A stretch of DNA of 52,735 bases, counting the filler, from Jimgerdemannia flammicorona (taxonomy: Eukaryota), in assembly GCA_003990765.1 (NCBI GenBank). It is 2 parts of 2 records of this genome, joined end to end, with 100 filler letters (N's around TTAATTAATTAA, not from the genome) between each part and the next. Parts side by side here need not be neighbours in the genome. Positions count along the whole stretch, not along the records: positions 26,421 to 52,735 come from RBNJ01000737.1; 1 more part is not named here. The stretch is one strand, 5' to 3'. The number at the start of each line of letters is the position of its first letter. The first letter of the stretch is position 1. Both the position numbers and the translations under genes were made by a program. The notes under the pieces are model-generated. The model was not told where the DNA came from. It did no database searches and was given only the letters and a program-made list of their open reading frames with translations. Positions 11,137 through 51,587 of this stretch are shown in pieces.

Positions 11137-11603
11137 TATAACATAGTGGACGCTTACTCTTGAAAGTACATCAGATTTCTGTATCTTGAAAACTTGACTG
11201 TTCTGACTCTTGCAGAGTCTCTTGGGTTGCAGGAGAGGGTGGGTAAGTTCGAAGTGTATCTGCCTGCTGGCTTACTAGTTCCTTTGCTATCTCTTTGCTT
11301 TTGAACTATTTCGATCTGAGGTTTATTCACTCGAAGATACTAGGTTATTTATACAAGTTTGCTAGCTATGAGATGGTTACTGGGTTATGTGGCTAAGTTA
11401 TGAGTCATTTAACACTTTGCGAAATATTTCACCAATTGCAAAATACTATACTATATCAAGAAGCTCGATCTCGCACTTTGTGAAATATTTTGCAAGTAGT
11501 GAAATTGAGGACTGCAAACTATGTGGCTATACTACTTTGGGACTAGGTACAATCAAGTATTTGTTCCTTATTTCCTTCTTTCGAATCTGGTTATACCATC
11601 ACA
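11137..11603 (-). repeat. 3' LTR of E2
   Basis: Direct repeat of 17349-17815; preceded on the minus strand by the purine tract AAGAGGAAG (~11605-11613). Confidence 0.93.
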
Positions 11604-11640: not shown

Positions 11641-12078
11641 CTATTCAAACTCCCAGACTTCAATGGTCTGTATGGTCTTGTATTGTGCAATTTGTTGCAT
11701 TACTGTTTCCAAATGGTGTTGCCTGACTCAGTTGAAGTCTGAGGGAGTCACTCCTCACAGGTGGGCTAGTGCTGGTTTATCCTCTTGAAATAGCTTGTGG
11801 ATTCTCTTAGCAATGGTAATCTGGAAATAGGAGAGCTGGCATTCTGCGATCCAATTTTCTTTGGTCATTTCTGGGTCTTGGTTGAGTACTTGGGCAAGTT
11901 TGAAGTACTCTTAAAATTCGTTTTGATGCTGATAGGCCTTGAAGTGTGAGATTTGAGAGAGATGAGTCTGTATAATGCTTTGGATACTATCATAAGACTC
12001 CTCTATCGTCAGAGGCTCAGTGGTATATCATTGTCTCTCGATGGCTCTTTGGGCAGCACTAGTGATCTTGAGTACCAT
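11641..12078 (-). pseudogene. E2 ORF3 (145 aa, env position), accessory protein of unknown function
   Basis: ATG about 13 nt after the pol stop; MVLKITSAAQRAIE...YFKLAQVL...IAKRIHKLF...ALAHL*GVT...; 4 internal stops, all readable as CGA/CAA->TGA/TAA. Confidence 0.8.
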
Positions 12079-12090
12079 TGCAGTACTTTT

Positions 12091-14794: not shown

Positions 14795-15200
14795 CTCTTT
14801 CTGTAGAGCCGAATCCAGCTCTTCCTTGCTGAGTTTGTCTGATGTTTGTGACTTCCTTGATTCTTGGGTTAAGGACAGGTAGGATGAGCATTTGTGCCAG
14901 CCGATCCTTCTTCTTTACTTCAAATGGGATTGTTGGATTATGATTCCTGGTGAGGAGGAGGATTTCTCCTGTATAGTCTGAATCAATGACTCCTCCTTCT
15001 ATGGATATTTCACTTTTCGCTAAGCTGCTCCTTGTCTTGAGGATTCCGACATGACTTAGTGGGATGGTTACTTTAATTCCTGTTCCCAGCATAGTAGTGG
15101 TTTGTGGTTCGATAATTGTGTGTATTATGGTAGATAGATCCATTCCTGCTGCATTCTCCGATTTGTACTGTGGCAAGACTACATCAGGGTGGATCCTTCA
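14795..15200 (-). CDS. dut: dUTPase domain of E2 (between PR and RT)
   Basis: AAGMDL, RSSLA, GVIDSDYTGEI, RLAQM, GRAGFGST. Confidence 0.93.
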
Positions 15201-17348: not shown

Positions 17349-17815
17349 TGTAATGTAGCAGACACTTACTCTTAAAAGTACATTGGATTTCAGTATCTTG
17401 AAAACTTGACTGTTCTGACTCTCACAGAGTCTCTTGAGTTACAGGGGAGAGTGGGTGAGTTCGAAGTGTATCTGCCCATAGGCTTACTAGTTCCTTTGCT
17501 ATCTCTTTGCTTTTGAACTATTTTAATCTGAGGTTTATTCACTTGAAGATACTGGGTTATTTATACAAGTTTGCTAGCTATGAGATAGTTACTGGGTTAT
17601 GTGGCTAAGTTATGAGGCATTTAACACTTTGCGAAATATTTTGCTAGTTGTGAAATGCTATACTATATTGAGAAGCTCAATCTCGCACTTTGTGAAATAT
17701 TTCACAAGTAGCGAAATTGAGGACTGCTAACTATGTGGCTATACTACTTTGAGACTGGGTATGATCAAGTGTTTATTCCCTATTTCCTTCTTCCGAATCT
17801 GGCTATACCATCACA
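17349..17815 (-). repeat. 5' LTR of E2
   Basis: tgtaa...tcaca termini; direct repeat of 11137-11603. Confidence 0.93.
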
Positions 17816-18059: not shown

Positions 18060-20116
18060 TGTGATATATATAACTGATAATACTGAAATAAGGAATAATG
18101 ATAACAGATCTTATAATATCAGATGATAACTTCAATCTTATAATATAATAAATAGATAATACTATCTGATGACTCTTTTAACTTATCAAGTGATCTAACC
18201 AAAAGAAGCAATGATAATTCAAGCTAAAATGAAGACTAAATTATTTAAAGAATTGAGATCTAGTATATTAAGAAGAATCAGAATATATATATAAGAATAT
18301 AATATCTCCTTCCTACCTCTCTAACTAGACTTTCTACTATAATACTTCTTTATCAAAACTGAAGAGTCTTGTCCTCAAAGCCATCAAAATGGCTATCTGG
18401 TACCTAGACACCACTAAGTATCTGAACTTCTATACTGAAGATCTTGGATATTTTATTAACTACTACTATATAATAACTTTGTAATACAAGAATACTACTG
18501 ACTGAATAGACCTCTGACATAACTATGAAATTGGATACTGCCTCTGTAATAAACCACAAGAAGATGACCAAGAAGATCTTATTACCAAATTATTAACCAC
18601 CAACTGGCTGATTATGGGAGTTCTTTATATCTACCAAATCGTCTATTATGTACTTTAGGCTATAGCTTACTTATAAGGAGTTACTGATAGAAATATAGTC
18701 TACCTCACTACTGAAGAAGTCAATTGGAAAGAAGTTGAAGATGTTAATTATATTAAGAGCAACAGTATTACTGTAAGAAGTTAACAAACTGAATCTACTC
18801 TGCAAGGCTTTTATATAACTTCTCTCTGATATAACCATCAAGGCTATCTAATGAGTCTTATGGAAATCTTTGAAGGACTACTTATTACTATTGAAGTACC
18901 TACAAGAGCTACCACAACTACCCCCTACTCTGTTAGTTATATGTCATATTACATTATATAAAAACTGAACTAAGAAGTCTCAAAAACTCCTATTCAAAAA
19001 GAAAAAGAACACTAAGACTACCCAAACTGAGGAATCCCAAGAAAATAAATAAAGAATCTACCAGTCTTCAGTCTGCCTTCAAGCTATGTAAGAGTTAGAA
19101 AACATCATTAAAGATAACTGGTCACTATTCTATCCCCTCACCTCTTGGTCAGTACTTTCTCTCTTTAAAGAGTGATATGATGAAATCACAATCTCATAAG
19201 GTGATTTTCTTGTTACTGGTAAAGTATATAATGCCTTTTAAGATAGAGATCAATATTCTTTATCAGTAATACAGAATAAAGGCATTTCAGCCTTATTCAA
19301 TTTAGTTAATATCACTCTCTATATAAGTATATTATAGTTTTGCCAAATATAGAATAGCTCTCCTATTACCTAAACATTCTTTGCCAGCAGTGCAGATCAA
19401 GAGTGTTCTAATCTTACCCCATTGATATAGTCTTTACTACTGATATACTACTACTAGCAAACCAATAGTATATCCAGACCTTATCATTAGAGTATAGTAG
19501 AAATATATATATACTCCTAAAGACAAGAGTGAATATATCTCAGTCAGATAGTTTAAAGTAAAAAGAATTTACAGAGAAACACACTACCTTCAAAAGTTGA
19601 GAGATTACTCTTACCAACTCAGAAATTGATACAAAATACAAACCACTACCTCAAAAATCATTATAAAACTCAAGATACAAATTGTACTGTTATAAAAATT
19701 GCCACAAAATTTAAGATATAAGTCAGTTAAGACTGTTATAAGAAATTTAAGATACAAGGCCTTAGAAATCAGATACAAGATTCAAGAAACAATAGAACAC
19801 TATTCAGAAATATATAGAATAATCACCAATATATTAAGAAGCTCAGAAAATCTGCAAAAACAATTGCCAGAAATCTTATACTATTTTGCTATTCCAAATA
19901 TCCAATAATATGACCAATGACTTGCAATATACAAACTTCAATAATATGGGAACTTTAACTTGATACAAATGAGAAATATAAACAAATTGAATAGTAGTTG
20001 AACTGAATATTGAGCTAGAACATTATCAGATAAAAAGATAAATAATATATAAGATAACCAGTTAACTAAGTAGTATATCAAGTAGTATATTCTACGAATA
20101 AGACATATATATTATA
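18060..20116 (+). repeat. Old, decayed LTR of an E1-related subfamily in opposite orientation (right end approximate)
   Basis: Starts tgtgatatatataactgataa, matching the E1 LTR minus-strand start tgtgatgtacacaattgacaa; contains the LTR-ORF homologue. Confidence 0.7.
18310..19230 (+). pseudogene. Decayed copy of the LTR-encoded accessory ORF
   Basis: LVLKAIKMAIWYLDTTKYLNFYTEDLGYFINY...YEIG...EDDQEDLITK...IYQSSVCLQA...WSLFYPLTSW. Confidence 0.75.
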
Positions 20117-24190: not shown

Positions 24191-24199
24191 ACTTAATAA

Positions 24200-24886
24200 T
24201 TATAGTGGACCAGTAGAGTACCAGACTGAAGGTGATCTTTGAAGCTGGAGTAGATACTATATCAGTGAGACCTTCTGATTAATATAGAGTGATTAGGTGG
24301 TAGGTGTCACTCTTGTCTACTTTTGGTAATTTATGTGATTAGGCCCCAGTTATTGGGAGTGATTGGGGGTCTGAGGCTACTTAGATTAGGTATCTTAGCT
24401 ATACTTAACTAGAACTGAGAACAGATATATGTAGTAATATAATTGAGACCCATAAGCTTGAGTAATAGAGTATTGGAGGTCACCTCCCATCTTACATATA
24501 AGTTCTCTACTCACCTCATTATAGAGAACCAGATTCTATCTACTATTCTGTACTTTGAGAGAAGGTTTTCTTTACCTATCACTCTTCTTGAAGTAGTAGG
24601 GGCTATGCAAATTGACTTAAACATAGTCTTATACATACATATGTTAGAGTTTTGGACATATATCTTTAGCATATGGTTATTACTCCCTAGTAGTAGGAAG
24701 AGCATGATATACAGAATAAGATACAGATAATTTTGCCCTACAGTATCTGATATAATTGAGCTACTGAATAATAGCTAGCCTAGGTTCAATTGAAGTAGAG
24801 TGCTCAGTGGGTAGTGGGAGAGGGTTTTGGTCTATATTGTCTAGGTTCTCTTTTAATAAAATCTGTGGGACTTTGAGTCTATTAAA
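24200..24886 (+). mobile_element. Old 5'-truncated copy of the 1.2 kb poly(A) retroposon (family R1)
   Basis: Aligns to ~28475-29160 with many transitions; ends aataaa...gagtctattaaa. Confidence 0.8.
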
Positions 24887-24897
24887 TATATATATAT

Positions 24898-26320
24898 TGT
24901 GACATTGGTTATATATAATGAACTTTGACTGCACGGCTCAATATGTCACAGATGACGCGTGCAATGTATATAACTGAAGGCATTGGTGACATTTCGCGGG
25001 TTGTTGGTCATGTAACGGGTCGTTCGATTCGTGCGATAATAATAATAGTGGGAGATCGATTGTTCGATGGGGAGGTCGTTCGGTTGTTCAATGGCTCAGG
25101 ACGTCGATGGCTCGATTGTTTAGTGGAAAAGATGTTGTTGCTAACAGAGGGCGGTTATTATGCTGGCTAAGTTTCCTGGTGGCGATTAACTTGTTGGCAA
25201 ACTCGGCGATGACGGTTTTGGCTTTAAGCGGTTTGTGGCGCAGTAGGGAATCGTTCGGGTCAATGGTTCAGTCGAACGTTCGTTCTTTAACTTGAGGGCG
25301 GGTTTACTGGGGTACTTGGCAGTTGTTCTTATATCTCGGCAGGTCCTAGGCTGCGGTCTTGTTTGGCTGGGTATCCTTGGGTTCCTTGGTTTTCTGGGTC
25401 TTGAATCTCGAATGGCGGTCTGAATGCATGGAGGTCCGAATGCATGGCGGTTGTGTCTTGAATCCTTGGCTGGGTAACTTGGGTTTCTGGGTCTTGAATC
25501 CTTGGCTTTCCGGGTCTTGAATGGCAGCGGTCGGTCTTTGGCGGTCTAGTGTGGCTTTCCTTAGCGGCGGGTCTTGAATGTTTTCTTTCTTTCCATGGCA
25601 AGAGAAAATTCTTTAACTCAAACCTCGAGCAATCGTTGCTCTAGTTATCTTGTTCTCAGAATTTATCCAGTCTCTTGAAGGCAGTGGTTATTACTCAAAA
25701 CCAGTTGACTGAGGTTTATTCACTCTAAGAATATGGGTTATTTATACAAGTTTGCTAGCTATGAGGGGGCGCGACTAAGGCTAAGGTATACTACGTTGTG
25801 GCAAACTTCGCTATGCTATTGGCTTGCATGATGTGAAGGGCTGACTTGCTGACAAGATGCTGAAAATGGTTGCACTGGATAGCAATGCTGGATTCGGTTG
25901 TGCTGGGTAGCAACGCTGGATTCGGACTTGCTGACTTGCTGACACGGACAGATATGGATGTGGTGATTGTTGCCAGAAGTGGTTGTGGAGGGTAGCAATG
26001 CTGAAAACGGACTTGCTGACAAAATGCTGAAAACGGTGGTACTGGGTAGCAATGCTGGATTCAGATGAGCTGACATGATTGCTGATTGTTGCCAGAAACG
26101 GTTGTGGGGGGTGGCAACGCTGAAAACAGATGCTGACTAAAAGCTTGGTTCTCATGGCTGATAGGTGGTACTCTAGAGGGAATAGTACCATTTGTCCGCG
26201 GTGGGCAAATCTTGCTGGGTTGCGATTTCTTCTTCATCATATCTCTCCTCAAAAGGGGGAAGCGCCGGCCAAGAGGTGAGGGGGTAGAAAAGTGGCCAGT
26301 CATCTTCAACAACATTCTCC
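24898..26320 (-). repeat. Less decayed E1-family LTR (solo or 3' LTR), truncated by the gap
   Basis: Starts tgtgacattgg like 7117; same TATA block, U3 repeats and LTR-ORF tail; many CpGs retained; no PBS on its left. Confidence 0.9.
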
Positions 26321-26420
26321 NNNNNNNNNNNNNNNNNNNNNNNNNNNNNNNNNNNNNNNNNNNNTTAATTAATTAANNNNNNNNNNNNNNNNNNNNNNNN
26401 NNNNNNNNNNNNNNNNNNNN
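26321..26420. other. Artificial assembly gap/linker (N44-TTAATTAATTAA-N44)
   Basis: Exactly 100 bp, with a central 12-mer giving stops in all six frames. Confidence 0.97.
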
Positions 26421-28064: not shown

Positions 28065-29194
28065 GGTAGTCTACCTCGGGTTGGTTTGCTGTGCCTGTAG
28101 GGGCATGGTGAGAGGAGGGCAATGGTGTTGGGTTGCCCCTTTATCGGTGTTGGATCGGTGCTTCCTCCATTTTTTTGCGGATTCTGGTACCTTCAGCTGC
28201 ATCTGGAGTGTACCCGTTTTGGTGCGGCGCCTTCTTCCTTTTGCTGTCACCAACAAGGTATTGTCTCGGTGTGTCTCAGGCTACGTAGGGAGTCGGCCGA
28301 CCTTGGGCATCAAATGCCCAGTGTAGGTTACCTACAGGTCTTTAGTGCCTGTGGTGGGGCCCTCTGGCTTTGGCGAGCTTCCCGGCGAGTGCAGTTCTGG
28401 CATAGGTGACTGCTTTTTGGGTGTTGTTGGGTTGGGAGGGGAGATGGCTGTCACAGATAGGAGGAAGGGCGATAACAGTGGACCAGTAGGGTGCCAGGCT
28501 AGGGACGGTCATCGGGGCTGGGGCAGGTGCTGCTTCGGTGGGGCCTTTTGATTGGTGCAGCATGGTTAGGTGGTAGGTGTCACTCTCGGCTTCTTTTGGC
28601 GGGTAGCGGGGTGAGGCCCCAGTTGTCAGGGGGGGTCGGGGGGCCCAAGGCTACCCATTTCAGGCATCTTGGCTGCACTCAACTAGAACCGGGAGCTGAC
28701 ATGGCAATGTGATCGAGGCCCACAAGCTTGAGTAGTAGGGTATTGGGGGTTTCCTCCCACCTCACGTGTAAGTTCTTTACTCACCTCAACTGGGAGAACT
28801 AGGCCCTACCCACCATGTTATGCTTTGATGAGGGTTTTTTCTTTGCCTGTCATTCTCTTTGGGGTGGCAGAGGCTATTCTATTTGGCTCGGGCATGGCCT
28901 TGTACATATGTTGGGTTCTCGGGCGTACACTTTCGGTTGTTGGCATATGGCTGGGTTTCCCCTGGTGGTAGGGAGAGCATGGTGTGCAGAATGAGGTGCG
29001 GGCTTTTTTGCCCTGTTGCACCTGGCATGGTCGAGCTGCTGGACAATAGCTAGCCTAGGTTAATGGGGGAGCAGTGCTTGGTGGGTGGTGGGGGAGAGTT
29101 TTGGCCTATACAGTCTAGGTTCCCTTCCAATAAAATTCCATGGGACATAGAGTCCGTTAAAAAAAAAAACAAAAAAAAAAAAAAAAAAAAAAAA
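28065..29194 (+). mobile_element. R1 poly(A) retroposon, slightly 5'-truncated, in E4 integrase
   Basis: TSD GACACTTAGT (28055-28064 / 29195-29204); AATAAA at 29129; A-tail 29159-29194. Confidence 0.92.
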
Positions 29195-31860: not shown

Positions 31861-32937
31861 GATCTTGAGCTCAGATTGACTGATAGTGGGGTTGACAGAT
31901 GTGTCTTTGGACAATATGGTGACTTGTCTTGAGGGTTCACTAGTCTTCTTAGAACATTTGGTTGCAATGTATCCTGTTTGATAATAGAAGAAATAGGCTC
32001 CAGATTTCATCAGACAGTCCTTTTCTTCAGAGGTGAGCTTGGTGTTCTTTTTGTTTATAGTGTCTAAGTCTATTGATACTGGGCCAACTGTCTTTGGTTG
32101 GTTCTTGTGGCAGTTCTTGAAGTGGTTCTTCTTGTAGTACTCTGGTTCAAAGCAGTTACTAAAGGTGATGACATCAAACCTATTGGTAATTCTCATAGCT
32201 TCATCAAGGTTTTTGGACTCTTCTAGCTCAATCTTGACTCATGTGTTTCCCTTCAGGTCTCAGATATAGTAGGCTATCTTTTTATCCTTAGATATCACTA
32301 GTAGCTCAAGTAGGATTAATAAGAATTATATATTATAGCTTTGTACAGACTTGAGTTACTTGATGTTCACTAGCTTATCTCTGACTAGTTTGGTAGCATT
32401 AGCAGACTTGAACTACTTGTGAAGAATTCTCTTAAAAGCTTCCCAGTCCCTGATTTATACATATGAGTGTATAGATGTAACTATGATATAATTGTACTAC
32501 TAGATGACTACATTTTCTCAGAGAAGTATAGTGGCAAATTGGACTTATATATCTTCTTCTATTCTTGTAAACTCAAAGTATTGGTCCAACTAGAAGATCC
32601 ATGCATCTGTAGATAGTCTTCCTTAATAGCTGTCAAAAATATCTCGTTTGAGTGACTTGAAACTGACTAGTACTATGACAGAATATAATATACTTACAGT
32701 TCTTGTTTTCTATTATTCTAGTTGTACTTGAAGTTCTTGAATTTGGTAGGCTATAGCATTAATCATATCCTTTATGTTGAGCTGTGATCCTCTTGCTTCT
32801 TCTGTAGCAGAGGGGTCTGGCTGGTAGACTGACTCTTCATAGCTTATTTCAGATTTGTGTGACTATTTGTAACTGGTTTTTGAATTTATGTAAGATTTCT
32901 TAATAAGGCAAGGTATAATTATACTACTGTTATCAAG

Positions 32938-33392
32938 TGTAATAGTTCTAGTTTCTTTAAGAGAAAGCAGCTAAATCTGGAAGTTCTAGTTGGCCTAAAG
33001 TAGCTCAAAGAGATACTTAAAGGTTTAAGTATTCTTGAAGAATTTCTAAGAGAAAATATTCTAAGCTTTATTCAAGTAGAGAACAAGGATATTTATATAT
33101 GATCTGAAAGGAAGAATCTTGGAAAGAAAGAGAAATACCAAGAAATAGGTTTTCAGCAATATTGACTATTACTATTCTACAATGTTCCAAAAGGTTCCAT
33201 AACTAGCTAAAACAAGATACTTGATACCAAGAAAAGGTAAGAATGTTCTAATTATGTCTGGGTGCTGAGAGAAGGTTTCTAAGCAAGTAGAAAGTAGTAG
33301 AACATAGTAGAATATTCAAGAAATAACAAGAAAAGACTAACTAAAAGACATGAAAATATACTAAGACTAAATATGACTGTGAAATTATTATA
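32938..33392 (-). repeat. 5' LTR of E4 (related to the E7 LTR; right end approximate)
   Basis: Reverse complement resembles 43628-44032; decayed PBS tgataacagtag adjacent. Confidence 0.8.
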
Positions 33393-33414
33393 ACAACTAT
33401 AACTACCAAGATCT

Positions 33415-33800
33415 ATAACTACATCTGTACTGATATTTAGAATACTATTATCAACCAAGCTATATCTTTTCTACTCCTCATGAATATCCATAGCCTAGCA
33501 CCTCTCTATTTTGTAAAAGCCCAATGGAATCTCTGAACATGCTTAGTAAAGTCTACTGAATCAGATAAATCTCAAGCTACTATCAGATCAGATGCCTTCT
33601 AGAAGATATAGTTGAACACTACTATGATATAGATATTACTCAGATATCTCAACACTAGAAAATTATTGTTTGTAAATACTGAGAACTCTTTTACAAGTAC
33701 AGTACCTTTATTCCCTACCTCCAAGTTACTACTACCAAAATGATTACTACTCTATCTTATGGCTAAATTAATGACATAGTATAAGAATATAACCATAAGT
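33415..33800 (+). pseudogene. Accessory-domain ORF in E6 5' LTR
   Basis: Decayed YYQIRCLLEDIVEHYY...ELFYKYSTFIPYLQVTTTKMITTLSYG. Confidence 0.65.
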
Positions 33801-36800
33801 ATATTGAGTATATTCAAACTATAGATAGAATCTTTTCATACTCTGATAACTATATTCTGCAAATGCCCCAAGTTGAATATACTATGAAGGATATATATGA
33901 TATAATCTAGTTCAATAATAATGAAGCAGAAGATAACAATCTCTTCAATATCAATATAATCTCTAGCCAAGGATCTCTGCCAGCCCTGATCACTCTGCCA
34001 ACCTTACTGATAAACTTACAATAGTTTATAACTATCTATGAGACCTATTGGGATAATGACTACTGGTATAGTACTAACTTATATTTATGCCTAACTACTT
34101 CAACTACAATGAAGAGACTAGAGAATACAATCTATATCTCCCAACAATCTTTGAGATTGAATCAATAACCTTACTATCTAAGTATATATAATATGAAAAA
34201 TAGCCACCAGTTTACTACAACTTAGTAATATATAGTACTATAATCTATAAAAGATATACAGACAGTGAATCTGATAAAAGTGAAGATAATATATCTCTCC
34301 TTTATCCACCAACTCCTTATCTAATATATAAGACAGATGATACTATCCTGTAGAATAGTGATGAGGCTCCAATATATTATTATCTGAGTGAACAGAAAGA
34401 AGTAATCCAAGAACTACTCTTTCTAGATAACTACTTTATCAGAGATGATATAATTGATGGTGATGTCATTAAAGACTACTCAGACAGCATCTAAATCTAT
34501 AGATAGCCTAGCAGTTATTAGTATAGTTAGATTAGTCTTATATAATATAGCTGCAAACTAACTCAGCAGTTAGATGATCTCTTGACATATCAGTTCACAC
34601 TTATACTATATAACTACATTCTAACTCAGCAAGACACTAAGTGCTATATCCATATTTAGCATAGTCTAGATAGCCTCCTATTAGTATAAATATCCCCTCC
34701 CCCAGACCTCAGAATCTCAGACTTAAATAGATAAGAATAATCTGAATATAACTCCTGAATACTTCCCTACAATATTCTTTTATAACTACTCCTAATATAG
34801 CAATATCATGAATAGTAAATAAATCCATTTAATAACTCATAGACTACTCTTAAGTAAATCTGAATATTATTAGGTCCTACTCATAACCACATTATAAAAT
34901 TTCTTGATTGGGTATTATCTGTAGCAATATGCCAATTTCAACTAAGCTAGTCTTAGTTTCTTGAACTTTCTGAAATATGGAAAATCCTAAACATCTAGAA
35001 TAAGTCTGAAAAAGGACTTTGGTTAAGATATTAATCTGATCTTGAAATCAATAAGTATAGAGGATATACTCTATATAAAATTGATCTTAACTTAAAGAAA
35101 ACAGTCTTCCAGAATATTCAGAACTTCCAGAAAACTCTTCCAGAACTACATAATGATACTTTTATAAGTAACTCTCTTATAACTTGATAGTAGTGATTTA
35201 TAATCCAATTCTGCTTCAAGATGCTTCCTCACTCTACTATAAATCTCTATAAGAATTCCTATAAGTTGATATAAAGCCCAACCTCTGAACTGAAATTTAT
35301 CCTGAACTATCTAACAATCTAGAGAGAATTAAACCTGATATATAAGGACAATTTGACCTCTACAACTGTAATAAGTGAGATAGACTTCATCTACAAAAAA
35401 AGTTCTCTAATTAAATTAGCTAATAAGCAAAAACCTATATACTAAACTCCTTGCTCTACACCCTGCAAGTCAAGATAAAGAAGGTCTTATAGAAGTTGTC
35501 TTTACTCTTCTCAATAAGAGTTTTGTCAGCTCTACAAACTTAAGTAATCTAGGACAACTAGCAGCTGTCTTTCTAGCCTTAGTTTCTCACAAAGTCCAAG
35601 TCTCTATAGCCAAGTAGCTTAACTCTACTAACTACTACCATATCAGTACCAAGACCACCTTATACTATTACTTTCAGAATTGTAAGACCCACTATATTCT
35701 TAAAGAAGAAGTAAGAGAAACTCTTTATTAACAACCTGACCCCAAACCAGAAGTAGGTCTAGCTACAGCCCTATCTGAAACTGAAACCAATACTGAACCA
35801 GATCAAAATCTTGAATTAAGTATATATGAAATCCAATATATAACTAATACTATCTACTTTGATGCTGAGCAAACTCAATTATACAGAGACCAAACTGAAG
35901 AGAAAGAGGAGTATCTCAGTAAATTTGATCCTAGATATGTATACTATCAAAGGAGATATATCTCTATTAGGACAAAACACACCTACATAGCAACAGACAG
36001 TCATCTATCAAGCTCTTACTCCAGACCTATAACAGTTACTTCAGCAACTTACACAGACTCAAAGAACACTATCATACTCTATATCAGTATCTCAAGTCAT
36101 ACTAATAATCTCACTATCAGTAGTCTAACTACCTTCAGTAAATAATATAGCAAACCAACAGATTTTAGACCTTACAGTATAGATAGCAATAATGATAGCA
36201 ATCATTACTACCTTAGCCAAACAGACCTAATTAACAAAAAGTCTGAGCCTATCTATCTTCAATAGTACTATACAAGAAGTCCAAAGCTTCATTAGTATGG
36301 TTGATACTAATTTTGAAGCCAATCAATAAACCAATGAATAAGTTACTAACTGCCTTCTGACAAACAATCAAGACTACACTCTGGAATAACTCTTTGCTAC
36401 TACTATGATCTATATTCATTGAGTTGTTATATTCTTCTGAGAACCTGCCAAAGAATGGTGGCAAATCCTTTCTGAAAAACCCCTCACATAGGATACACAA
36501 CTTGTAGTTATTTCCCAGAATGTAGCAAATAATGTCTCAGAATATAGAAATCATCCTATAGCTCCTAGACTCAAACAACTCATGATTGTTTAATATTATA
36601 GCAAAACTCTGATTACCAAATCTTAAGCTAAACTCTGTAATCTCAAATTTGATATATGTATATGGTAAGGAGGAATTTAAACCCTTCTATACAAAACTTG
36701 AGTCACTCCTGAACACCATTGGTCTAGGATATATTGCCAATGATGAAGTATGAAATAGTACAAAAGCAGACTATTTATTCAATATACTACCTGAATGACT

Positions 36801-37214: not shown

Positions 37215-37610
37215 ACTGGACTTCATTAAGTTAAGGCAAACTGCCAAGGCCCCAACCAAAGAAAGTCAAAAAACAGCTAGATATGACCTATATATAGCTG
37301 AAAAAGCTATAGTTTCTAACTAAGAAGTATATAGAAATCAGTATCTAAATCTCTAAAAAAAACATGTTGAAAGAATATATTGTCATAGTAGTCTAGCATT
37401 AAAAGAACTTTTAGTAGAAGAAGAAGTTATTGATGATAATTATATAGGTGAAATTATTGTCCTCATCTAAAACCATAGCTAGATACTCTTCAAAATTCCT
37501 ATTTGGTTTCTATATTGCCCAGATTCTATTTAAGAAAATTGAATCAACCCTGATAGTCAAGAAAGTCCCAGAACTACTGCCTACTATAAGAGGATCAAAA
37601 GGATTTTGAC
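37215..37610 (+). pseudogene. dut: E6 dUTPase (between gag and protease)
   Basis: ARYDLY, HSSLALK, VIDDNYIGEI, IAQI, RGSKGF; decayed. Confidence 0.82.
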
Positions 37611-38389
37611 TCATTAAACAAGGCCCCAGTCCAGCCCACTATGAATAAAGAAGAACAATTCTATAAGAAAATTGAAGATAGATTTGTACCAAGTGGCTGA
37701 TACCCCTATGGTAATGAAATGTACTTTTCCCAAATAATTGACAATTGCTTCTCTTGTATCAATAAACTGACTCAAAGAAGAACTAATAGAAGGAAAGCTC
37801 TTATAACTAAAATCACCACTATTAGATCAGACAAACTGTTTATACTGTAAGCTTTTATCAATAGAGTACTTATTAAGATTATAATAAACAGTAATACATA
37901 TCTCCAGCAACTTCATCAATGAAGAAATAGCCAACAAACTCAAGGTCCTGACCTCTTTGATACAACAGACTCAAGCAGTTGCTACAGCTGATAGAACCTC
38001 ACATATTATTAGCAAAGAAGTCTACAACCTACTCTTTTGAATTAATAACTACTAAGTATATTTTATACTTCAGATCATACTACTTCTTGACAATGAAATC
38101 ATTCTTAGGACTTTATGGTTAAAACAAGAAAACTCTATAATTGATATTGGATAAACTACTCTCTAACTATTGAAAGAATGACACAATTTCAAACTATAAG
38201 GTAAAAAGAATCCACTCAGTTCTAATAACTCTGGACTAAAAATTATCCATATCAATAAGCTACAACTTAAGAAATTAGCCAAGAAATACCCCCTCTTTAC
38301 TATCTCTATCCACCCATCCAAAGGAGAATCTGAAAACCTTGAAGAAGACTTTTCCAAAGTTAACAGTCATGTTAGACCATTACTTCAGA

Positions 38390-41285
38390 AATTCTGAGAT
38401 ATATTTCTAAAAAAACTCCCAAAAGGCCTACCATCTAAATGAGCAGTAGACTATATCATCAAGACTATTCCAGATGTCAAGTCTGCCTTCAAGTCAATCT
38501 ATTATATATCTCCTAGAGAAATTGATATACTCAAGAAAGAGATTGATAAACTCCTAGAACAAAAATTCATTAGACCTAGTATATCACCTTATGGTACATC
38601 AGTCCTCTTTGTTGTTAAGAAAGGAGAAGACTTATGAATGTATATAGACTACCATAACCTCAATGAGCAAACAATCAAGAACTGCTACCCACTATTCAGA
38701 ATTGATGAAATATTTTATAGGCTTACCAATCTACAATTTATGAGCTCTTTTGATCTGTAAAATAACTATTATCAAATTGCTATAAAAGAAGAAGATATTT
38801 ATAAGACCACCTTCTGAACTTGTTATGGATATTTTGAGTTCTTGGTTATACTCTTTGGCTTAACTAATACTCCTGCAACCTTCCAGATACTGATGAATAC
38901 TATCCTGCATCTGTATCTGGACAAATTTATTATTGTCTATATTGATGATATTCTAGTCTTCAGCAAAACTCTAGAGGAATATCTTGAACATCTTGAACTA
39001 GTACTACTGAAACTCTGAGAAAACTGACTCTTTGCAAAACTCAGCAAATGCAAATTTCTCCTAAAAGAAATTCAATTCCTTAGATACATTGTCACTCTCA
39101 ATAAAATCAAAGTAGACTCTAGCAAAATCTCTATAATCAAGAAATAGCTCAGACCTAAGAAGCTGAAGGACCTCTAGTCATTCCTAAGACTAGTAAACTA
39201 TTACTTGCAATTTGTTGCAAACTTTACCAAGATTGCTACTATCCTTATCCAAATGACCAAGTATAGTAAGAAAGAAGAATAGCTCTGGACTAAAAAATAA
39301 GAAAAAGACTTCAACAATCTTATAAATTGGAAACCTGAACAAGATATAGTCTTTCAAATATTGAAAGATACCTTAATAACCACTCTAGTACTTCAAGCAG
39401 CAAATCCTATCCTACCTTATAAAGTTATCACTAATGTCTCTGACCTAGCTCTTAGAGCAGTACTTATACAGAAAGGACACCCTATAGCCTACGACTCCTA
39501 CAAGTTCAATGATACTGAAATCAACTACATAATTTATAAGAAGAAAATATTAGTCATTGTAGATACTCTGATCAAATGGTGACTATATCTTGAAGGAGCA
39601 CACTTCACTGTATTGACTGACTACAAATCATTAGTCAATATCAAGATCTAGGCTACTCTTTCTCAAAAGTAAGCCAGATGGATGAAAGTCCTTACCAATT
39701 TTGACTATGAAATTCAGTATTACCCTAATAAAGAGAATATTATTACCAATATAATCTCCAGACCACCAATCAAAGAAGTTATCCAAACTCTCATCTTGGT
39801 CACCAACTCTATTATAAAATAAATTATTACAGTATATACTAATAATAAAGAAGCTCAAGTACTCTAAGAAATTCCAAGCAATAATAATACTGATAAGTAT
39901 ATCAGTATCATCAATACCAACTGAAGGACAATGCTATCTACTATAAGAATAAATTGTATATTCCTAATAATTGAGATCTCTGAAAGACTATCTTATTCAA
40001 ATATCATAATATCTCTATAGCTGGACATTTAGGATTTGACAAATGCTATGAAGTTATTTCCCAAAACTTCTATTGACCCTGTATGGCTAATTAGCTAAAG
40101 ACCTATATTACTTCCTATGATACCTGCTAATGTAATAAGATCTCAATACTAGTAAAACCTGGTCTACTCTATACTATCTCAGTACCATCTACTAATTAGG
40201 AACAAATCTCTATGGACTTCATTATATAACTACCCCAAACCAAGAATGAGAAAAATACAATTATTGTCTTTATGAACTATTGCAGCAAATAAGTCTATTT
40301 TGTACCAACTACTACTACCACAACAGTATTAGATATAGCCACACTCTTGTTTGATAATATCTTCTACTATCATGGTCTCTCTAAGATCATTATTAGTAAC
40401 TGTAATCTGAAGTTTATCAGTTATTTTTAAAAAGCTCTCCATGCATACCTTAGAACAAAACTTATACTATCTATAGTCTTTTACTCTGAAACTAATGGTC
40501 AAACAGGAAGAATGAACCAAACTTTAGAACAAATACTAAGGAATTATATTTTCTATAAGTAAGATGATTGGTATAAATATCTTACTACAGTTGAGTTTAC
40601 CTATAATAACAGTAAGTAAGTATCTCTGAGAATGACCCTGTTCTTTATCAATACTAGACAAAACCCAAACACCCCTCTGATACTTATTAGAACTACCAAT
40701 AAACTCTCTAATATTGAAGCTGTTGAAGAATTTCTGCTCTGAATATGCAACTTGAGTTAAATTATAATTGAGAATTTATCCTAAGCTCAAGAACAACAGT
40801 CACAGTATATCAACCAGTACCACTAAGAAGAAACTTTTGATATTAGAAAAAAAGTTCTACTAGATATCTGAGGATACCAAGTTGATAACCTCAAGTACAG
40901 ACTATCTACAAAGCTGAATAGCAAATTCATTAAACTATTTAAAGTCATTGTATAAGTCTCTCTAACTTCTTACAAATTAGTACTACTAGATACTATTAAG
41001 ATTCACTCAGTCTTTAATGTTTAACATCTCAAGCAATATAATGAAAATGAAAATGATAATAAACTATTCTCAAACCAAACTACAAAACCACCTGCTCCTG
41101 TCATTATTAATGACTAAAAAGAATACAAAGTTGAACAAATCCTCAATAAATATAGCCACAAGAACCATTCATAATACTTTGTCAAATAGAAAGATTATCT
41201 AATCTATAATATAATATAGGAACTCAAGATCAACCTCTAGAATACTACTGATCTAGTTCAAAAATATGACTCTTTGAATAACTGA
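38390..41285 (+). pseudogene. E6 RT, RNase H, integrase and chromodomain
   Basis: [47 protein letters not shown]; many stops. Confidence 0.9.
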
Positions 41286-41716
41286 AACTGAATACTGCTA
41301 TACCTACTAGTCCTATATTATATACCATCCCTCTTAAACAATAAGTACCATTATAACTATCATAAATAAAATCAAGAACTCAGCAAGTTAAGATAAAAGA
41401 ATACCAACCCTCTAGAAAAATAGCAAAACTGAAAGCCAGTCTATTCTTCCTATACCACTGGTGGGAAATGAGATATAGATATTTAAAAAGATTCTTTAGA
41501 GGAAATTCTCCAGTGGTAAATGATGTCTGATGTATGGCATTAAATATATAACTCTTTAATATATAAATCTAATATATTAGGCAACTGTACTACAAGTATA
41601 CTACTTTTTGAGAAAATTGGACTTTATTGAACTTTTGACTATCCAAATGATGTAAAAATACTAGATCAAAATTAGAAGACCTTGATGAGAACATTGAAAG
41701 CTAAAAAGGGGAAAGT

Positions 41717-42371
41717 TGTAAGCATATCCTCTAAGCCACCAAAATCATATATCACCTCTAAATAAAATTAGAAATTACATACAAGATCACAAAGTTAAGT
41801 CAAATCAAAGTTATAGAACATGAAGCTGAGTCAACTTGAAGTCACAGAATATAAGATTTATACAAACAAAATCTTATCAATAAAGACCAAATGTATATAT
41901 ACTCAATACTCAGATGTATCAAAACAGAGAACTAAAACAAATATAACTGTATCTATACTGATATTTAAAATACCATTGTCAACTAAGCCACACCTCTCCT
42001 GCCCCTCATGAATATCCATAGTCTGACATCTCTCTACTTTGTGGAAGCCTGATGGAATACCCTGAATATACTTAATGAAGTCCACTAAATTGGACAAATC
42101 TCAAGCTATTATCAAATTAGATACCTCCTAAAAAACATAGTCAAATACTACTATGATATAGATATTATCCAGATGTCTCAATATCAGAAACTCATTACTC
42201 ACAAATACCAAGAACTCTTTTATGAGTACAGTACCTTTATTCCTCACCTCTGAGTTATTACTACTAAAATGATTACTACTCTGTCCTATAGCCAAATTAA
42301 TGATATAATACAAGAACTCAACTACTAGTATATCAAGTATATTTAAACTACAGATAGAATCTTCCTATATC
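41717..42371 (+). repeat. 3' LTR of E6 (truncated), containing the accessory-domain ORF at ~41945-42330
   Basis: Follows the PPT, starts TGTAAG; ORF reads YYQIRYLL...KLITHKYQELFYEYSTFIPHL*VITTKMITTLSYSQINDII. Confidence 0.8.
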
Positions 42372-42560
42372 TAGTACTCTGATCAAGTCAGGGAAATTCA
42401 AATCTGATTCAAATTTGCTAACCACATGACTGATTCAAGCCAGTTTGAATTCATTACATAATGAATTTATTATGTGATTAGTTCAGGTCAATTTGAGCTA
42501 GCTCAAATTCATCTTAGGAGCTGAAATCCTGATAAATTCTTCAGATGATAAATCAAACTA
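42372..42560. mobile_element. Possible terminus of a DNA transposon (hAT-like) interrupting the E6 3' LTR
   Basis: Starts TAGTACTCTGATC with repeated decayed (g)attc(g)aa subterminal motifs; other end not found. Confidence 0.3.
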
Positions 42561-43149
42561 AACTAGTGCAAATTAACAGACCTATAAAAAGAACAATTCT
42601 TTAATTAAAAAAAAACCTGAAGAAAGGATACTATATCTGCCAAACTTCTATCAAATATTCAAAAACTAAGATATAATATGAAAATCAGCTACCAAATATA
42701 TAAAATATCTATAGATTTTTTTACTCTACTAAGTTTTCAAAAAATTTATTGTAGCAGCACACAGCTTTCAAGATTCTGTGATAAATACTTAAAGATAAAC
42801 TATTCAAAACTTCCTTATCTCCTATAACTGTAAAACTATATAGTTGATTTGAATAAAATACCATCATCATATTAGACTCCAGTAGAACTCCAATACCATA
42901 AGTCAAATTATAAAATAAGCCTCCAGATTTTGAGATATACTGTCCTTTATGTTTGATAATACAGAGTAAAATAGATATTATATCTTGATCAGTATGAGTA
43001 GGAGAGCTTATACATCAGCCAAAAAATATGTTGCTGACTTTTGCTATATTTTGCTCAAACTGAAATCCTCTAAGTCTAAAATGTATTCTAGATTGACCCA
43101 GATTCATCTGACCTCCATCTATTCTAGATAATTTCAAAACTGATAAGAA

Positions 43150-43310
43150 TGCTGAAGCTGGAAATGCTGAGGATATCAGGGATATCAGAGATACTGGAGA
43201 TGCTAAGAATGCTAGGAATGCTGGAGATACCAGAGATACCAGAAATGCTGAGGATACCAGAGATGCTGGGGATGTTAAGAATACTGAGGATGCTAAGGAT
43301 ACTAGGATAT
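43150..43310. repeat. 9-bp minisatellite (~GATGCTGGA), about 17 degenerate units
   Basis: gctggaaat gctgaggat atcagggat atcagagat actggagat ... Confidence 0.8.
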
Positions 43311-43583
43311 CTCCTGAAATTTCTCTAAGAGATAAATAGTAGGAAGTATTAAATTAGTTAAAAATTAGATAAAGTAGGAGAATTTGATGCCACATCTGAT
43401 AAGAAGTGTTGAAAAGAAGTAAAGCTATCTCTATAATAGCTATTTCATATTCCTCCTATTTATCTTGTTTAATTTTTAGTTTAAAATTATTGAGAGATAT
43501 GATACTGTAATATATCTCTCTAGTATAGGTCAAAGTATAGCCAGCTGATATATACATAAGATCTAGTTTCAGCTTGAGCTTTG

Positions 43584-43584
<1 letters not shown>

Positions 43585-43622
<38 letters not shown>

Positions 43623-43627
43623 GTCAC
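43585..43627 (-). mobile_element. Poly(A) tail and terminus of an R2 retroposon, separated from its body by the E7 insertion
   Basis: T35-ATAGTCAC is the reverse complement of GTGACTAT(A)n seen at 26640; continues at 52078. Confidence 0.75.
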
Positions 43628-44062: not shown

Positions 44063-45252
44063 TTTTTTTGTTTTTTTGTTTTACGGACTCTATGTCCCAT
44101 GGATTTTTATTGGAAGGGAACCTAGACTATATAGGCCAAAACCCTCCCCCACCACCCATCAAGTACTGCCCCCCCATTAACCTAGGCTAGCTATTGTTCA
44201 GCAGCTTGACCATACCAGGCACAGTAGGGCAAAGTAGCCTGCACCTCATTCTGCACACCATGCTCTCCCTACCACCAGGGGAAACCCAGCTATACACCAA
44301 TAACCGAAAGCGCATACCTGAGAACCCAACGTATGTATAAGGCCACGCCCAAGCCAAATAGAATAGCCCCTGTCACCCCAAAGAGAATGACAGGCAAAGA
44401 AAAAAACCCTCATCAAAGCACAACATGGTGGGTAGGGCCTGGTTCTCCCAGTCGAGGTGAGTAGAGAACTTACATGTGAGGTGGGAGGAGACCCCCAATA
44501 CCCCACTACTCAAGCCTGTAGGCCTCGATCACGTTGCCGTGTCAGCTCCTGGTTCCAGTTGAGTGCAGCCAAGATATCTAAAATGGGTAGCCTCGGGCCC
44601 CCCAACCCCCCCTGATGACTGGGGCCCAACCCCATGAATCGCCAAAAGAAGCCAAGAGTGACACCTACCACCTAACTATACTGCACCAATCAAAAGGCCC
44701 CACTGAAGCAGCACCTGCCCCAGCCCTAACAACCACCCCCAGCCTGGCACCTTACTGGTCCACTGTAATCGCCCTTCCTCCTATCTGTGATGGCCATCTC
44801 CCCTCCCATCCTGACATCACCTGAAAAACAGTCACCTATGCCAGAACCACACTCACTGGGAAGCTTGCCAAAGCCAGAGGGCCCCACCACAGGCACTGAG
44901 GACCTGCAGGTAACCTACACTGAGCACTTGATGCCCAAGGTCGGCTGACTCCCTACATAGCCCGAGACACACTGAGATAACTCCTTGTTGGCGATGGTAA
45001 AAGGAAGAAAGCACTGCACCAAAACGGGTATACCCCAGATGCAGCTAAAGGCACCAGAATCCGCAAAAAAGTGGAGAAAGCACCAATTCGACACTGACAA
45101 AGGGGCAACTCATCACCATTGCCCTCCTCCCACCATGCTCCTACAGGCACAGCAAACCAACCCGAGGTAGAGGGGGTAATATTAGGGAAAAGGGGACTCG
45201 GAAGGTCACCTACCAAACCTTGTGACTAGTAAGGTAGTGGAGAAAGGAGCTG
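44063..45252 (-). mobile_element. R1 poly(A) retroposon, apparently full length, just downstream of the E7 PBS
   Basis: TSD AAGTTA(T/C)ACTTAGC (44049-44062 / 45253-45266); T-rich tail at the left end. Confidence 0.93.
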
Positions 45253-45314: not shown

Positions 45315-48300
45315 ATGAGTGAAACCCTTTATACAGTACCTATAGTCCAGACAATACCTCATATAATTAGCAAGAAGAAGAGGAATAGCAAAACCCTACT
45401 CAGTCAAATAGAGCCATTGAGAGTCTTTTGTAGACCACATTAGCTCAGATTGCTCAACTTCAAGAATGCATAGAAAGAAAGGAAAGTAAGGCCTCTACTC
45501 ATACCTCTGCACCTCTACTGATATCAATATATCCGACAGCAGTCACTATCAAGCCTCAGAAGCCTGACACCTTTAATGATCAAAGAGGAGGACTGTCTAC
45601 TGATACCTGAATTTTCCAATTGAAGCAATATAGAGAACTGACCAATTTGGAAGAAGCAATACTAGTCCAATTCACCACTACACTCCTCTGAGGGAATGCT
45701 ACTATCTGGTGGTGAAATCATGTCCAGAATACCAGATTCTCTGGCTGAATCAAGACCTGGGGTGAATTTGCTGATGCTATTTAAGGCCAATTCAAACCAG
45801 TCAATAGCATCAAGGCCACACAAGACTGTCTGGCAAATGTCAAACAACTCAAGTCTGTGCAAGTATATAATGCATAATTCCTATCAATCCTGCTAGAATT
45901 ACCACATGTCACTGAAGACAAGAAGGTCAACAAGTATATCTGAGGTCTGAAAGGTCAAACTCAAGTTTGTATTGAACTAGAAGAACTCAAGGACTTAGAT
46001 ACAGCAATGAAGATTGCTGATAGATTTGATATCATCACCTATGATCACCACTTTGAACAGAAGAGACTACCTTTCAACAACAACAACAATCACAGAAGGG
46101 AGGAACCCAAAGTCAGAACTGTTGGACCTGCCCCCATGGACCTAGACACCATCGACAAGAATAAGAAAGGCAAGCTTACACCCAAGAAAAAGGAGTACCT
46201 TAAGAAGGCTGGAGCCTGCTTCTTTTGCCATCAGCCTGGTCACATTGCAACCAAATGTTTCAAGAAAACTGCCAAACCAAAGAGGATTCTGGTCCTGTCC
46301 AAAGATACCCAAGGTCAACTAGTTGAATAAAAAGTTATACTTAATTTTATGCAAGTCAACCCCAAGGCCCAGATCCCTCAAGCACAGTTAGAAGGAGCCA
46401 TAGGTTTAGACCTTCAAGCAGTACAACAAGTCACTATTCCAGTACATGAAAGAAGGCTCATTCCAACTGGTCTTTCAGTTGAAATCCCCAAGAAATATTA
46501 TGCAAGGATTGCACCAAGATCTGGTCTTAGTTTCAAGTACTCATTGGATGTTAGTGCTGGAGTCATTGACCCTGACTTCTGAGGTAAAATACAAGTCCTG
46601 CTAGTCAACCACAAGAACCAACCATACACTGTCAATGAAGGTGACAGAATTGCACAGCTCATTCTGGAGTGAGCCACCCTACCAGTCATCAAAGAAGTCA
46701 CCAAGCTGTCTTCAACCAAGTAAAATCAGAAAGACTTTGGCAGTACTGATAAAGTTGCAAGTATAGCTAAGAACTGAGCCAATTAAATGCTCATCTTCAA
46801 AGGTCTAGTCAAGAGATAAGAGCTAGATGTTCTCATAGACAGTGGAGCTGTTGGGAACTTCATCAAGAACCTCATCAACAAGCTCAAGATTCTCACCAAA
46901 CTAGCTGGTAAGAATAGTGGAGTTGTCACTGCAGATAGCACCATCTTACCAATTGACTCAATTGCTGCTAAACTTCCCCTCAAGATCCAGAAGTACTGGG
47001 AATGTTTAGATTTCGAGATAGTACCACTAGGAAACCATGACCTGATCCTAGACAAACCCTGACTTACATGACATAACCCTCAGATCGATTGGACCAAGAA
47101 TGAAGTCACTTTGATCCAGGATGGAGCCAACATTACTATCAAGCCAGACTAGACTCAGACAAGAACCCCAATTGCTACCCTCTTAGCAATTCAGTTCAAA
47201 AAGGCCCTCAAGAAAGCTACTTATGCCTTTGTGGTACTGATCCAACCAAAGAAAGAAGACAAGAAGCTATCAATTAGTGAAAGCATCAAGTTACTACTGA
47301 ATAAGTACAAGGATGTCTTCCCAGACAAACTACCTGGTCTACCACCTTTGAGAGACCATGACCACGAAATCAAGTTGGTACCTGATGCAGCCATACCTAA
47401 GAAGAAAATGTACTACATATCTCCACTCGAAATTGAAGCAGTCAAGAAGAAACTCAATAAACTCATTGAGCAAGGAGCTATTCAGCCAAGCAAGTCACCC
47501 TTTGGCTCCCCAGTCCTATTTGTCAAGAAAAAGAATAATACTCTGCAAATGTGTATAGACTATCGAGCACTCAACAAGATCACAGTTAAGAACCATTATC
47601 TGCTACCACTCATAGATCAAATCTTTGATACTCTCAAGAATGCAAAGTACTTCACCAAGATTGATCTCACCTCTGGGTATTACCAAATTCGAATCAAGCC
47701 AGAAGACATACCCAAGACTGCCTTCATAACACCCTTTAGACTCTATGAATTTCTAGTCATAGCCTTTGGTCTCACCAATGTACTAGCAATCTTTCAAGAT
47801 CTCATGCAAACTGTCTTCAAGGACTAGCTCTATGTCTTCATACTTGTATACATTGACAACATTCTGATCTTCAGTAGTACCAAAGAAGAACACCTCAAGC
47901 ATATTGAACAAGTCCTCAAGATCCTCCATGAGAACAAGCTCTATGCAAAACTCAAGAAATGGGAATTTTTCAAGAATCAAGTCGAATACCTTGGATACAT
48001 TGTATTAGCTAAAGGAATTTAAGTAGACCCAAGGAAAATACAAACCATTGAACAGTGGCCTGTACCAGCAAACCTCACTGAACTCAGATCCTTCTTCAGT
48101 CTGACTGGATACTACTGTTGATTTGTTAAGAACTTCTCTGGTATCACAGAATCTTTGACAAACCTCCTGCAAAAGGAATCCAACTCTGACCTCTATGTCT
48201 CCTACATCTGGGATACTTTCTGTCAACAAGCTTTTCAAGAACTCAAGAACTGCCTGACCCATGTACCTGTCCTGAGAAACATGGACTCAAACTTGAAGTT

Positions 48301-50386: not shown

Positions 50387-50419
<33 letters not shown>

Positions 50420-51587
50420 GGACTCATGTCCCGCGGAATTTTATTGGAAGAGAACCTAGACTATATAGGCCAAAATCCTCCCTCACCACCCACCAAGCAC
50501 TGCCACCCCATTAATCTAGGCTAGCTATTGTCCAGCAGCTTGACCATGCCAGGCACAGTAGGGCCAATAGACCCGCACCTCATTCTGCACACCATGCTCT
50601 CCCTACCGCTAGGGGAAACCCAACCATATACCAATGACCGAAAGTGCATGCCTGAGAACCCAACATATGTACAAGACCACGTCCGAGCCGAATAGAATAG
50701 CCCCTGCCACCCCAAAGAGAATGACAGGCAAAAAAAAAACCCTCATCAAAGTACAATACAGTGGGTAGGGCCTGGTTCTCCCAGTTGAGGTGAGTAAAGG
50801 ACTTATACGTGAGGTGGGAGGAAACCCCCAATACCCCACTACTCAAGCCTGTGGGCTTCGATCATATTGCCATGTCAGCTCCCGGTTCCAGTTGAGTGTA
50901 GCCAAGATGCCTGAAATGAGTAGCCTCAGGCCTCCTAATCCCCCCTGACAACTGGGGCCCAACCCCACTGACTGCCAAAAGAGGCCGATAGTGACACCTA
51001 CCACCTAACCATGCCACACCAATCAAAAGGCCCCACTGAAGCAGTACCTGCCCCAGCTCCGATGACTGCCCCCAGCCTAGCATCCTACTGGTTCACCATA
51101 ATCGCCCTTCCTCCTATCTGTGATGGCCATCTCCCCTCCCATCCCGACAACACCCAAAAAGCAGTCACCTATGCCAGAACCGTGCTTGCCGGGAAGCTTG
51201 CCAAAGCCAGAGAGCCCCACCACAGGCACTGAAGACCTGCAGGTAACCTACACTGAGCACTTGACACCCAAGGTCGGCTGACTCCCTACGTAGCCCGAGA
51301 CACACCGAGACAACACCTTGTTGGTGACAGCAAAAGGAAGAAGGTGCCGCACCAAAACGGGTATACCCCAGACGCAGCCGAAGGCACCAGAATCTACGAA
51401 AAAGTAGAGGAAGCACCGATCTGACACTGATAAAGGGGTAACTCATCACCATTGCCCTCCTCCCACCATGCCCCTGCAGGCACAGCAAACCAACTTGAGG
51501 TAGAGGAGGTAATAATAGGGGAAAGGGGACTCAGAAGGTTGCCTACCAAACCTTGTGACCAGTAAGGTAGTGGAGAAAAGGTTGTTG
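50387..51587 (-). mobile_element. R1 poly(A) retroposon, apparently full length, in the E7 3' UTR
   Basis: TSD AATTTGAAGTTTC (50374-50386 / 51588-51600); ~30-nt T tail; same 5' end as the 44063-45252 copy. Confidence 0.93.

Follow-up and report, generated by a model that had tools for sequence, protein, structure and literature searches.

A conserved gene within the long terminal repeat of a Jimgerdemannia flammicorona chromovirus, with relatives in other Gypsy families

The E6 chromovirus and its long terminal repeats

The window analysed here is a stretch of 52,735 nucleotides of Jimgerdemannia flammicorona DNA (assembly GCA_003990765.1). It joins two contigs, with an N gap at positions 26321-26420 that holds a TTAATTAATTAA spacer; the two elements of main interest, E1 and E6, may therefore not be adjacent in the genome. 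E6 is a decayed chromovirus with a long terminal repeat (LTR) of about 2.04 kb. Its domain order is gag-dUTPase-PR-RT-RH-IN-chromo. Between the window repeats, Pfam identifies gag, dUTPase, protease (PR), reverse transcriptase (RT), RNase H (RH), integrase (IN) and an SH3 domain, and the PR-RT-RH-IN order of Ty3/gypsy chromoviruses is present. The chromodomain of the window copy falls below the Pfam threshold, though it is the counterpart of the one found at the integrase C-terminus of a natural copy of the E6 family, L091 (PF00385, E 4.2e-18). In an RT tree of elements of this genome only, E6 groups with two other chromodomain elements with support of 100/99.

All internal features of E6 lie on the plus strand. 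The primer-binding site (PBS), at 35185-35196, is decayed in the window. Better-preserved copies have a PBS of which up to 12 nt are complementary to the 3' end of tRNA-Met(CAT), and the genome holds two tRNA-Met(CAT) genes with initiator features that pair with the E6-family PBS. The decayed gag region, with approximate bounds at 35300 and 37240, has a long N-terminal extension and a CCHC knuckle (zf-CCHC E 1.4e-4 in L090). The dUTPase, at 37243-37500 (PF00692 E 3.7e-8, and 5.5e-33 in L092), is ahead of the protease. The decayed segment from protease through RT, RNase H, integrase and SH3 domain to the chromodomain occupies 37828-41270 (Pfam; Chromo in L091), and the polypurine tract (PPT) lies at 41703-41715. 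The whole element is nearly CpG-free, with an observed/expected ratio of 0.00-0.02.

Two features of the coding region deserve mention in their own right. The gag extension of the E6 family is an in-frame segment of about 270 codons, acidic and rich in Pro, Thr and Gln, that precedes the capsid-like part (window 35300-36190; L088:3693-4493; L090:1731-2588); it matches no Pfam family and has no clear Met start. A dUTPase occurs in several Gypsy families (window 37243-37500, 14937-15053, 46478-46612, and in E1 pol). Chromodomain elements have it ahead of the protease, the others after the protease and ahead of RT.

The repeats that flank E6, at 33414-33834 and 41942-42363, are 79.9% identical over 422 nt (E 5e-104) and differ by 83 transitions and 10 transversions. 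A sequence-only reading of this DNA had placed them at 33415-33845 and 41945-42370 and had proposed, from the PPT with TGTAAG at 41717 and from CTTA(C/T)A with a PBS at about 35181, an LTR of about 2.0 kb. All of these signals are present, as follows. TGTAAG at 41717 follows the PPT, and CTTATA ends at 35181, ahead of the decayed PBS. The proposed length also agrees with the complete element L175/L176, which has two 2.04-kb LTRs, 92.9% identical, within an exact 5-bp target-site duplication (TSD). Both window LTRs are truncated. The 5' LTR remnant, 33396-35181 (+), aligns to positions ~251-2040 of the L087 LTR and lacks the first ~250 nt, and the 3' LTR remnant, 41717-42374 (+), comprises the first ~700 nt (L087 LTR 1-227 and 272-704), with a 44-nt deletion that removes the start region of the gene described below. 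Only some 430 nt are duplicated in the window because the 5' LTR starts at 33396 and the 3' LTR stops at about 42374.

The LTR of another chromovirus, at 32935-33395 (-), recognised by sequence and repeat comparison, adjoins the truncated E6 5' LTR and is a probable nested insertion. A search of the window recovered neither the missing ~250 nt of the 5' LTR nor the remainder of the 3' LTR, and the contig ends at the end of the window. In place of the remaining 3' LTR stands a segment, 42375-43627, that matches none of the fetched loci; it opens with short ttcaaatc/ttgattc repeats, and a 9-18-nt tandem repeat lies at about 43160-43310. Elsewhere, a GC-rich repeat of about 1.18 kb with a poly(A/T) end is inserted three times (28070-29192, 44063-45245 and 50398-51578), with a diverged copy at 24199-24886 and a target duplication of about 13 bp around one insertion; it looks like a SINE or a truncated LINE.

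That the repeats are LTRs of E6 and not independent insertions is borne out by copies elsewhere in the genome. A DNA search with the E6 repeat gave at least 45 matches, from the 40 candidates scored out of 5,728, and 30 loci were fetched. In nearly all of these copies the segment equivalent to 41717-41940 precedes that equivalent to 33393-35181, an order absent in the window itself and in L014. The LTR copy runs on into PBS and leader in 17 of the 30 loci (window counted) and is preceded by integrase and PPT in four. Eight further copies are solo-like, and six of these have a 5-bp TSD (three exact, three with one transition). Thus TG...CA ends, PPT, PBS and 5-bp TSD, the hallmarks of an LTR, are all found in the E6 family.

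A gene of 365 codons in U3

The E6 LTR carries a conserved sense gene of 365 codons, wholly in U3. To our knowledge, Ty3/gypsy LTRs are regarded as control regions that encode no protein, and genes within them are not sought by annotation tools. In the 5' LTR of the window, the gene extends over 33399-34494 (+) and is broken by 13 premature stops, by 1-nt losses near 33530 and 34070, and by a decayed start. A second, partial copy at 41942-42374 (+) covers codons ~6-149 with seven stops and is recognised by a profile of proteins from outside this genome (E 1.4e-4); the same profile gives no score over 5 bits for the 5' copy, which is more broken.

The frame becomes clear when copies are compared. 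Among 30 decayed copies selected by DNA match and read column by column, one plus-strand frame has no stop common to at least 90% of them from about 33250 to 34492. In the 21 less-decayed LTRs, it is the sole plus-strand frame without a fixed stop between LTR positions 91 and 1350. Third-position variability is raised across the gene frame and gone past the stop in both sets. The gene is fully open from its Met, with 365 codons, in nine of the 17 loci inspected. It ends at a stop at 34492-34494, short of the ~34750 to which coding sequence had been thought to continue. A second frame in U5 was considered and rejected, as its stops are common to the copies and codon periodicity is absent.

Among the nine open copies, the gene has a pN/pS of 0.24 (transitions) and 0.08 (transversions), or of 0.20 and 0.06 in its 3' part, the tail, compared with 1.8-3.3 in shifted frames; these copies were picked for openness, and their 36 pairs are mutually dependent. 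Judged by this substitution pattern, the gene is under purifying selection.

Signals downstream of the gene fix its position in the LTR. TATAAATA, the putative main LTR promoter, at 34685-34692 (+), and AATAAA, the putative poly(A) signal in R, at 34818-34823 (+), both follow the gene in 21 of 21 less-decayed LTRs, and hence the gene lies within U3. It follows that the gene is duplicated with the LTR and kept in solo LTRs. Sites that we take to be AP-1/Gcn4-like stand on both sides of it. The 3' site, TGA(C/G)TCA, at 34559-34565 (+), is present in 20 of the 21 LTRs and decayed in the window. The 5' site, TGAGTCA, at 41827-41833 (+) in the 3' LTR, has a partner in most copies, and one or both of the two sites are present in all 21. 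Nine of the 21 copies have, ahead of the gene, a TATA-like box that fits the search pattern.

A domain shared among Gypsy families

Related genes occur in four families of this genome: A (E6), B (E1), C, of which L174 is a complete element, and D, the element at 11.1-17.8 kb of the window. The labels E1 and E2 used in the sequence-only reading were assigned to elements by inference. That reading had held that LTRs of both element types encode the gene. This is so for E6 and for E1, whose ~2.3-kb LTR has the domain at 8828-9289 (-) by profile match, and family C likewise has it inside a 1.5-kb LTR. In family D, the homologous gene, at 11653-12093 (-) by profile, lies between integrase and PPT, outside the 455-bp LTRs, and its frames are short, at 166 codons, without a long acidic tail. 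A decayed copy of the E1-type domain was found by sequence comparison at 18344-18787 (+). The different domain order that had been claimed for E6 stands: E6 has a dUTPase before the protease and a chromodomain, and the non-chromodomain families have the order PR-dUTPase-RT and no chromodomain.

A short motif had been the basis for linking the E6 gene to that of E1. A tblastn search of the window with the E6 LTR frames gave no E1 match, and hhalign of the family alignments gave E 0.27 for E6 against E1 and E 0.064 for E6 against family C, neither significant. The shared short motif alone is therefore no proof. The homology is recovered by profiles, as follows. A profile of families B, C and D matches five held-out family A loci across most of the domain (iE 1.7e-5 to 6.9e-3; best reversed-frame control 0.61). 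A search of 1.84 billion representatives returned 21 matches, of which three repeat proteins (P0023, P0024 and P0026) were dropped as artefacts. A profile of nine distant outside proteins, which had originally been found by a profile containing family A rows, matches all four families, with values of 2e-16 for A, 3e-13 for B and C, and 3e-25 for D (best reversed-frame control 0.35). A single outside protein, P0030, retrieves both E6-type and pre-PPT-type frames; a single-sequence homolog search gave one match. By these profile comparisons, the N-terminal domain of about 135 amino acids is homologous among E6, E1, family D, family C and the metagenome proteins.

These data bear on the suggestion that the gene is a functionless captured passenger, or that the likeness among families is convergence on a short motif. 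The non-significant pairwise comparisons of E6 with E1 and family C and the broken state of both window copies would fit such a reading. However, pN/pS well under 1, about 365 codons without a fixed stop, and an outside-only profile match that spans the whole domain argue against it, and we consider it highly improbable.

Some further members and LTR features were seen. Diverged copies of the domain in L011 (frame +2, residues 1240-1376), L179 and L089 are 24% identical to family D and 38-43% to family C, so that more than four families have the gene. E1 and the 11-18 kb element have in common an LTR promoter core of about 57 nt at the TATA box, 89-91% identical (window 7644-7714, 11304-11374, 17516-17586 and 25697-25767; L171, L172); their LTRs differ outside this core, and the core motif also occurs in both outside metagenome elements. 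The E1 U3 (window 7790-8290 and 25850-26150) contains tandem 55-85-nt repeats with GTCAGCA/TGCTGAC, like the TGACTCAGCA sites of the E6 U3. A bZIP input from the host, common to both elements, is possible.

The histories of gene and backbone differ among the non-chromodomain families. By RT, family C is closer to D (64-72% identity) than to B (39-43%). By the gene, the order is reversed, with 10-14% identity to D and 26% to B, and the B and C genes align over 201 columns with probability 98.4. An AU test rejects a C+D gene clade (p 0.022), under one model, on a long-branched gene tree and for a grouping picked with knowledge of an earlier tree. Since C and D are close in RT and distant in the gene, and given the AU result, the gene/LTR module was probably exchanged among non-chromodomain Gypsy backbones. 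The gene tree and the RT tree thus conflict among these families.

The sequence-only reading had offered two histories for E6, an ancient gene or one exchanged between lineages, and for E6 itself the comparisons do not support a recent exchange. The E6 gene is 13-17% identical to those of all other families (RT 31-38%) and forms a deep, long branch without a close donor. Two other chromoviruses in the window, 48-54% identical to the E6 family in RT, have short LTRs, and no match to the gene was found in their window copies, one of which is without its 3' end. We think it fairly likely that the E6 lineage gained the gene by an old swap, the more parsimonious account; inheritance within the lineage, with losses in the sister chromoviruses, is favoured less. 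The first position of the gene was most likely between pol and PPT, as it is in the 11-18 kb element and in both outside loci with context, the longer of which is a non-chromodomain Gypsy element with a dUTPase. It would then have entered the LTR through an upstream shift of the PPT/U3 boundary, and would travel between pol backbones with the 3' end/LTR module.

Proposed function of the U3 product and comparison with known systems

The predicted protein has two parts. Codons ~1-140 (33399-33820, +) encode the shared domain, which AlphaFold2, given the 27-row cross-family alignment and a natural E6 copy, models as all-helical (pLDDT 89, pTM 0.81); from a single sequence, the model was unusable (pLDDT 44). 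The conserved core contains a basic helix (R/K-x-x-A-x-R..LF), and the domain overall is net acidic (-5). Residues 141-364 (33821-34494, +) form a tail with a net charge of -41 over 224 amino acids in L085 and with many aromatics and prolines.

Searches with the protein gave little. Pfam matched no family in the proteins of the four families, and none was common to the 27 members; no Pfam helix-turn-helix (HTH) family matches the E6 domain. PHROGs gave single weak matches only, and the best PDB sequence match (E 0.027) is unrelated. Among 48,161 chains, the DNA-binding domains of SopB (3mkw/3mky) and VirB (3vwb) ranked 3, 4 and 9 against the model, aligning 83-84 residues within ~55-140 at Z 3.4-3.7 and rmsd 4.4-5.1, values inside the tool's noise. 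The best Foldseek E-values were 1.0 (PDB) and 0.15 (viral), the latter for DUF3102, below significance. Residues 73-83, where the first HTH helix would be expected, are a loop in the model. A structure-atlas search gave no usable match for E6 and unnamed clusters for P0027, for which one HTH_3 cluster (15% share) and a ParB-cluster model (TM 0.38) are leads only. ParB-type HTH domains and phage DUF3102 are thus the best interpretable fold neighbours, below significance, without a sequence match and as a lead.

An acidic, aromatic-rich make-up is typical of acidic activation domains. Because the tail has this make-up, we favour a self-encoded transcriptional regulator, with a probability of roughly 45%, over roles in anti-silencing or on RNA and particles. 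We propose that the product acts in the nucleus as a regulator of its own element. Through its basic helix, the helical domain would contact either LTR DNA itself or a factor bound there, and activation of the LTR promoter, about 190 nt beyond the stop codon, would fall to the acidic tail. A second promoter near the 5' end of U3, with the paired TGAGTCA sites and the variable TATA-like box, probably drives the gene itself, and the transcript would end at AATAAA in R. With such signals, every LTR, solo ones included, could express the gene. Several observations count against a regulator of this kind: the weak fold matches, the lack of a Pfam HTH match, the net acidic charge of the helical domain, the loop at residues 73-83, the short family D frames that have no long acidic tail, and the TATA-like box seen in only nine of 21 copies.

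The proposal can be extended to the Gypsy elements of this host group, which would resemble complex retroviruses in their behaviour and share an undescribed family of self-encoded, HTH-like, acidic-activator transcription factors in U3 with their own promoter; the module would have been swapped even between chromoviruses and non-chromodomain elements, and many solo LTRs would be stand-alone regulator genes. We hold this wider proposal to be doubtful.

Plant VANC proteins offer a parallel for an anti-silencing factor, which would bind DNA of its own family and counter methylation or heterochromatin rather than act by classical activation. The near absence of CpG and the C-to-T decay over E6, from which heavy host silencing can be inferred, fit this reading, as does the combination of fast divergence across families (10-26%) with strong constraint within the family, as in an arms race. 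However, no similarity to a known suppressor was found by the Pfam, PHROG and PDB searches, and the acidic, aromatic tail and the site just upstream of the TATA box suit an activator equally. An anti-silencing role is, on this evidence, somewhat unlikely.

A factor acting on RNA or on particles is unlikely. It would be an export factor of the Rev, Rem or CERV kind, a Gag chaperone or an agent of copy-number control, and the small size, helical fold and conserved basic helix of the protein would suit it. Export factors have been reported in LTR elements: CERV of Cer1 (PMC10309623) and Rem of mouse mammary tumour virus (MMTV; PMC9412291). However, the E6 protein has no arginine-rich motif and a net negative charge, and its gene, being in U3, occurs in genomic RNA at the 3' end only.

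The position of the family D gene, 3' of pol, is that of env, and would suit a protein of env or membrane type that serves spread from cell to cell. Such a protein is scarcely credible here: the E6 protein has no membrane-spanning stretch (maximum 19-residue hydropathy, KD19, 0.86), the model is of a soluble, all-helical protein, and a Pfam match is absent.

A search of the literature, with subscription papers mostly outside its scope, found no account of this family, nor of any gene lying entirely inside a Ty3/gypsy LTR. On the sequence evidence, the undescribed, selected gene inside these chromovirus LTRs is real. A selected gene without a Pfam, PHROG or PDB match takes up about half of a 2-kb LTR. 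The gene is common to one chromovirus and three non-chromodomain families, with a tree at odds with that of RT, and it offers a case in which modular exchange of LTRs across distant lineages can be tested. If the product is a regulator, retrotransposons would have evolved, independently, self-regulation in the style of complex retroviruses, and solo LTRs left by recombination would retain the whole regulatory gene.

Several known systems invite comparison. Bdelloid retroelements, as far as the available text goes (PMC5408684), have ORF3 types common to distant elements, many with a dUTPase, for which independent acquisitions were inferred. Unlike the E6 product, those ORF3 proteins are known enzymes or env, transmembrane or coiled-coil proteins, in elements with LTRs of 159-551 bp and, in that text, without a chromodomain. 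Extra ORFs between pol and the 3' LTR are described for Ty3/gypsy elements (PMC7264820; PMC2864245, in the portions available). Like the E6 gene, they are conserved in most copies, with a regulatory role proposed, and gene23 of Grande is described there as having its own promoter and a nuclear product. In contrast, those ORFs lie in the internal region and are env-like or antisense, and the E6-type genes are sense, non-membrane and, in three families, inside U3.

The closest analogy in position is MMTV, a betaretrovirus. According to the available text (PMC9412291), its U3 contains the sag/naf ORF, a second U3 promoter has been reported, and the virus has a dUTPase. Like E6, MMTV thus combines a protein gene in U3 with a dUTPase, an analogy of position only: it is a retrovirus and not a Ty3/gypsy element, and its Sag is a superantigen, whereas the E6 protein is without a membrane segment. 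For the proposed mode of action, the parallel is foamy-virus Tas/Bel, described in the accessible text as the product of a 3'-end gene with an internal promoter and as a transcription regulator (PMC7828637). The tas/bel gene differs in belonging to a retrovirus, where it is sited between env and the LTR region, and the sequence and fold searches with the E6 protein gave no match to its product. By analogy, however, the E6 product would act much as that text describes for Tas, combining a promoter of its own with self-regulation of transcription.
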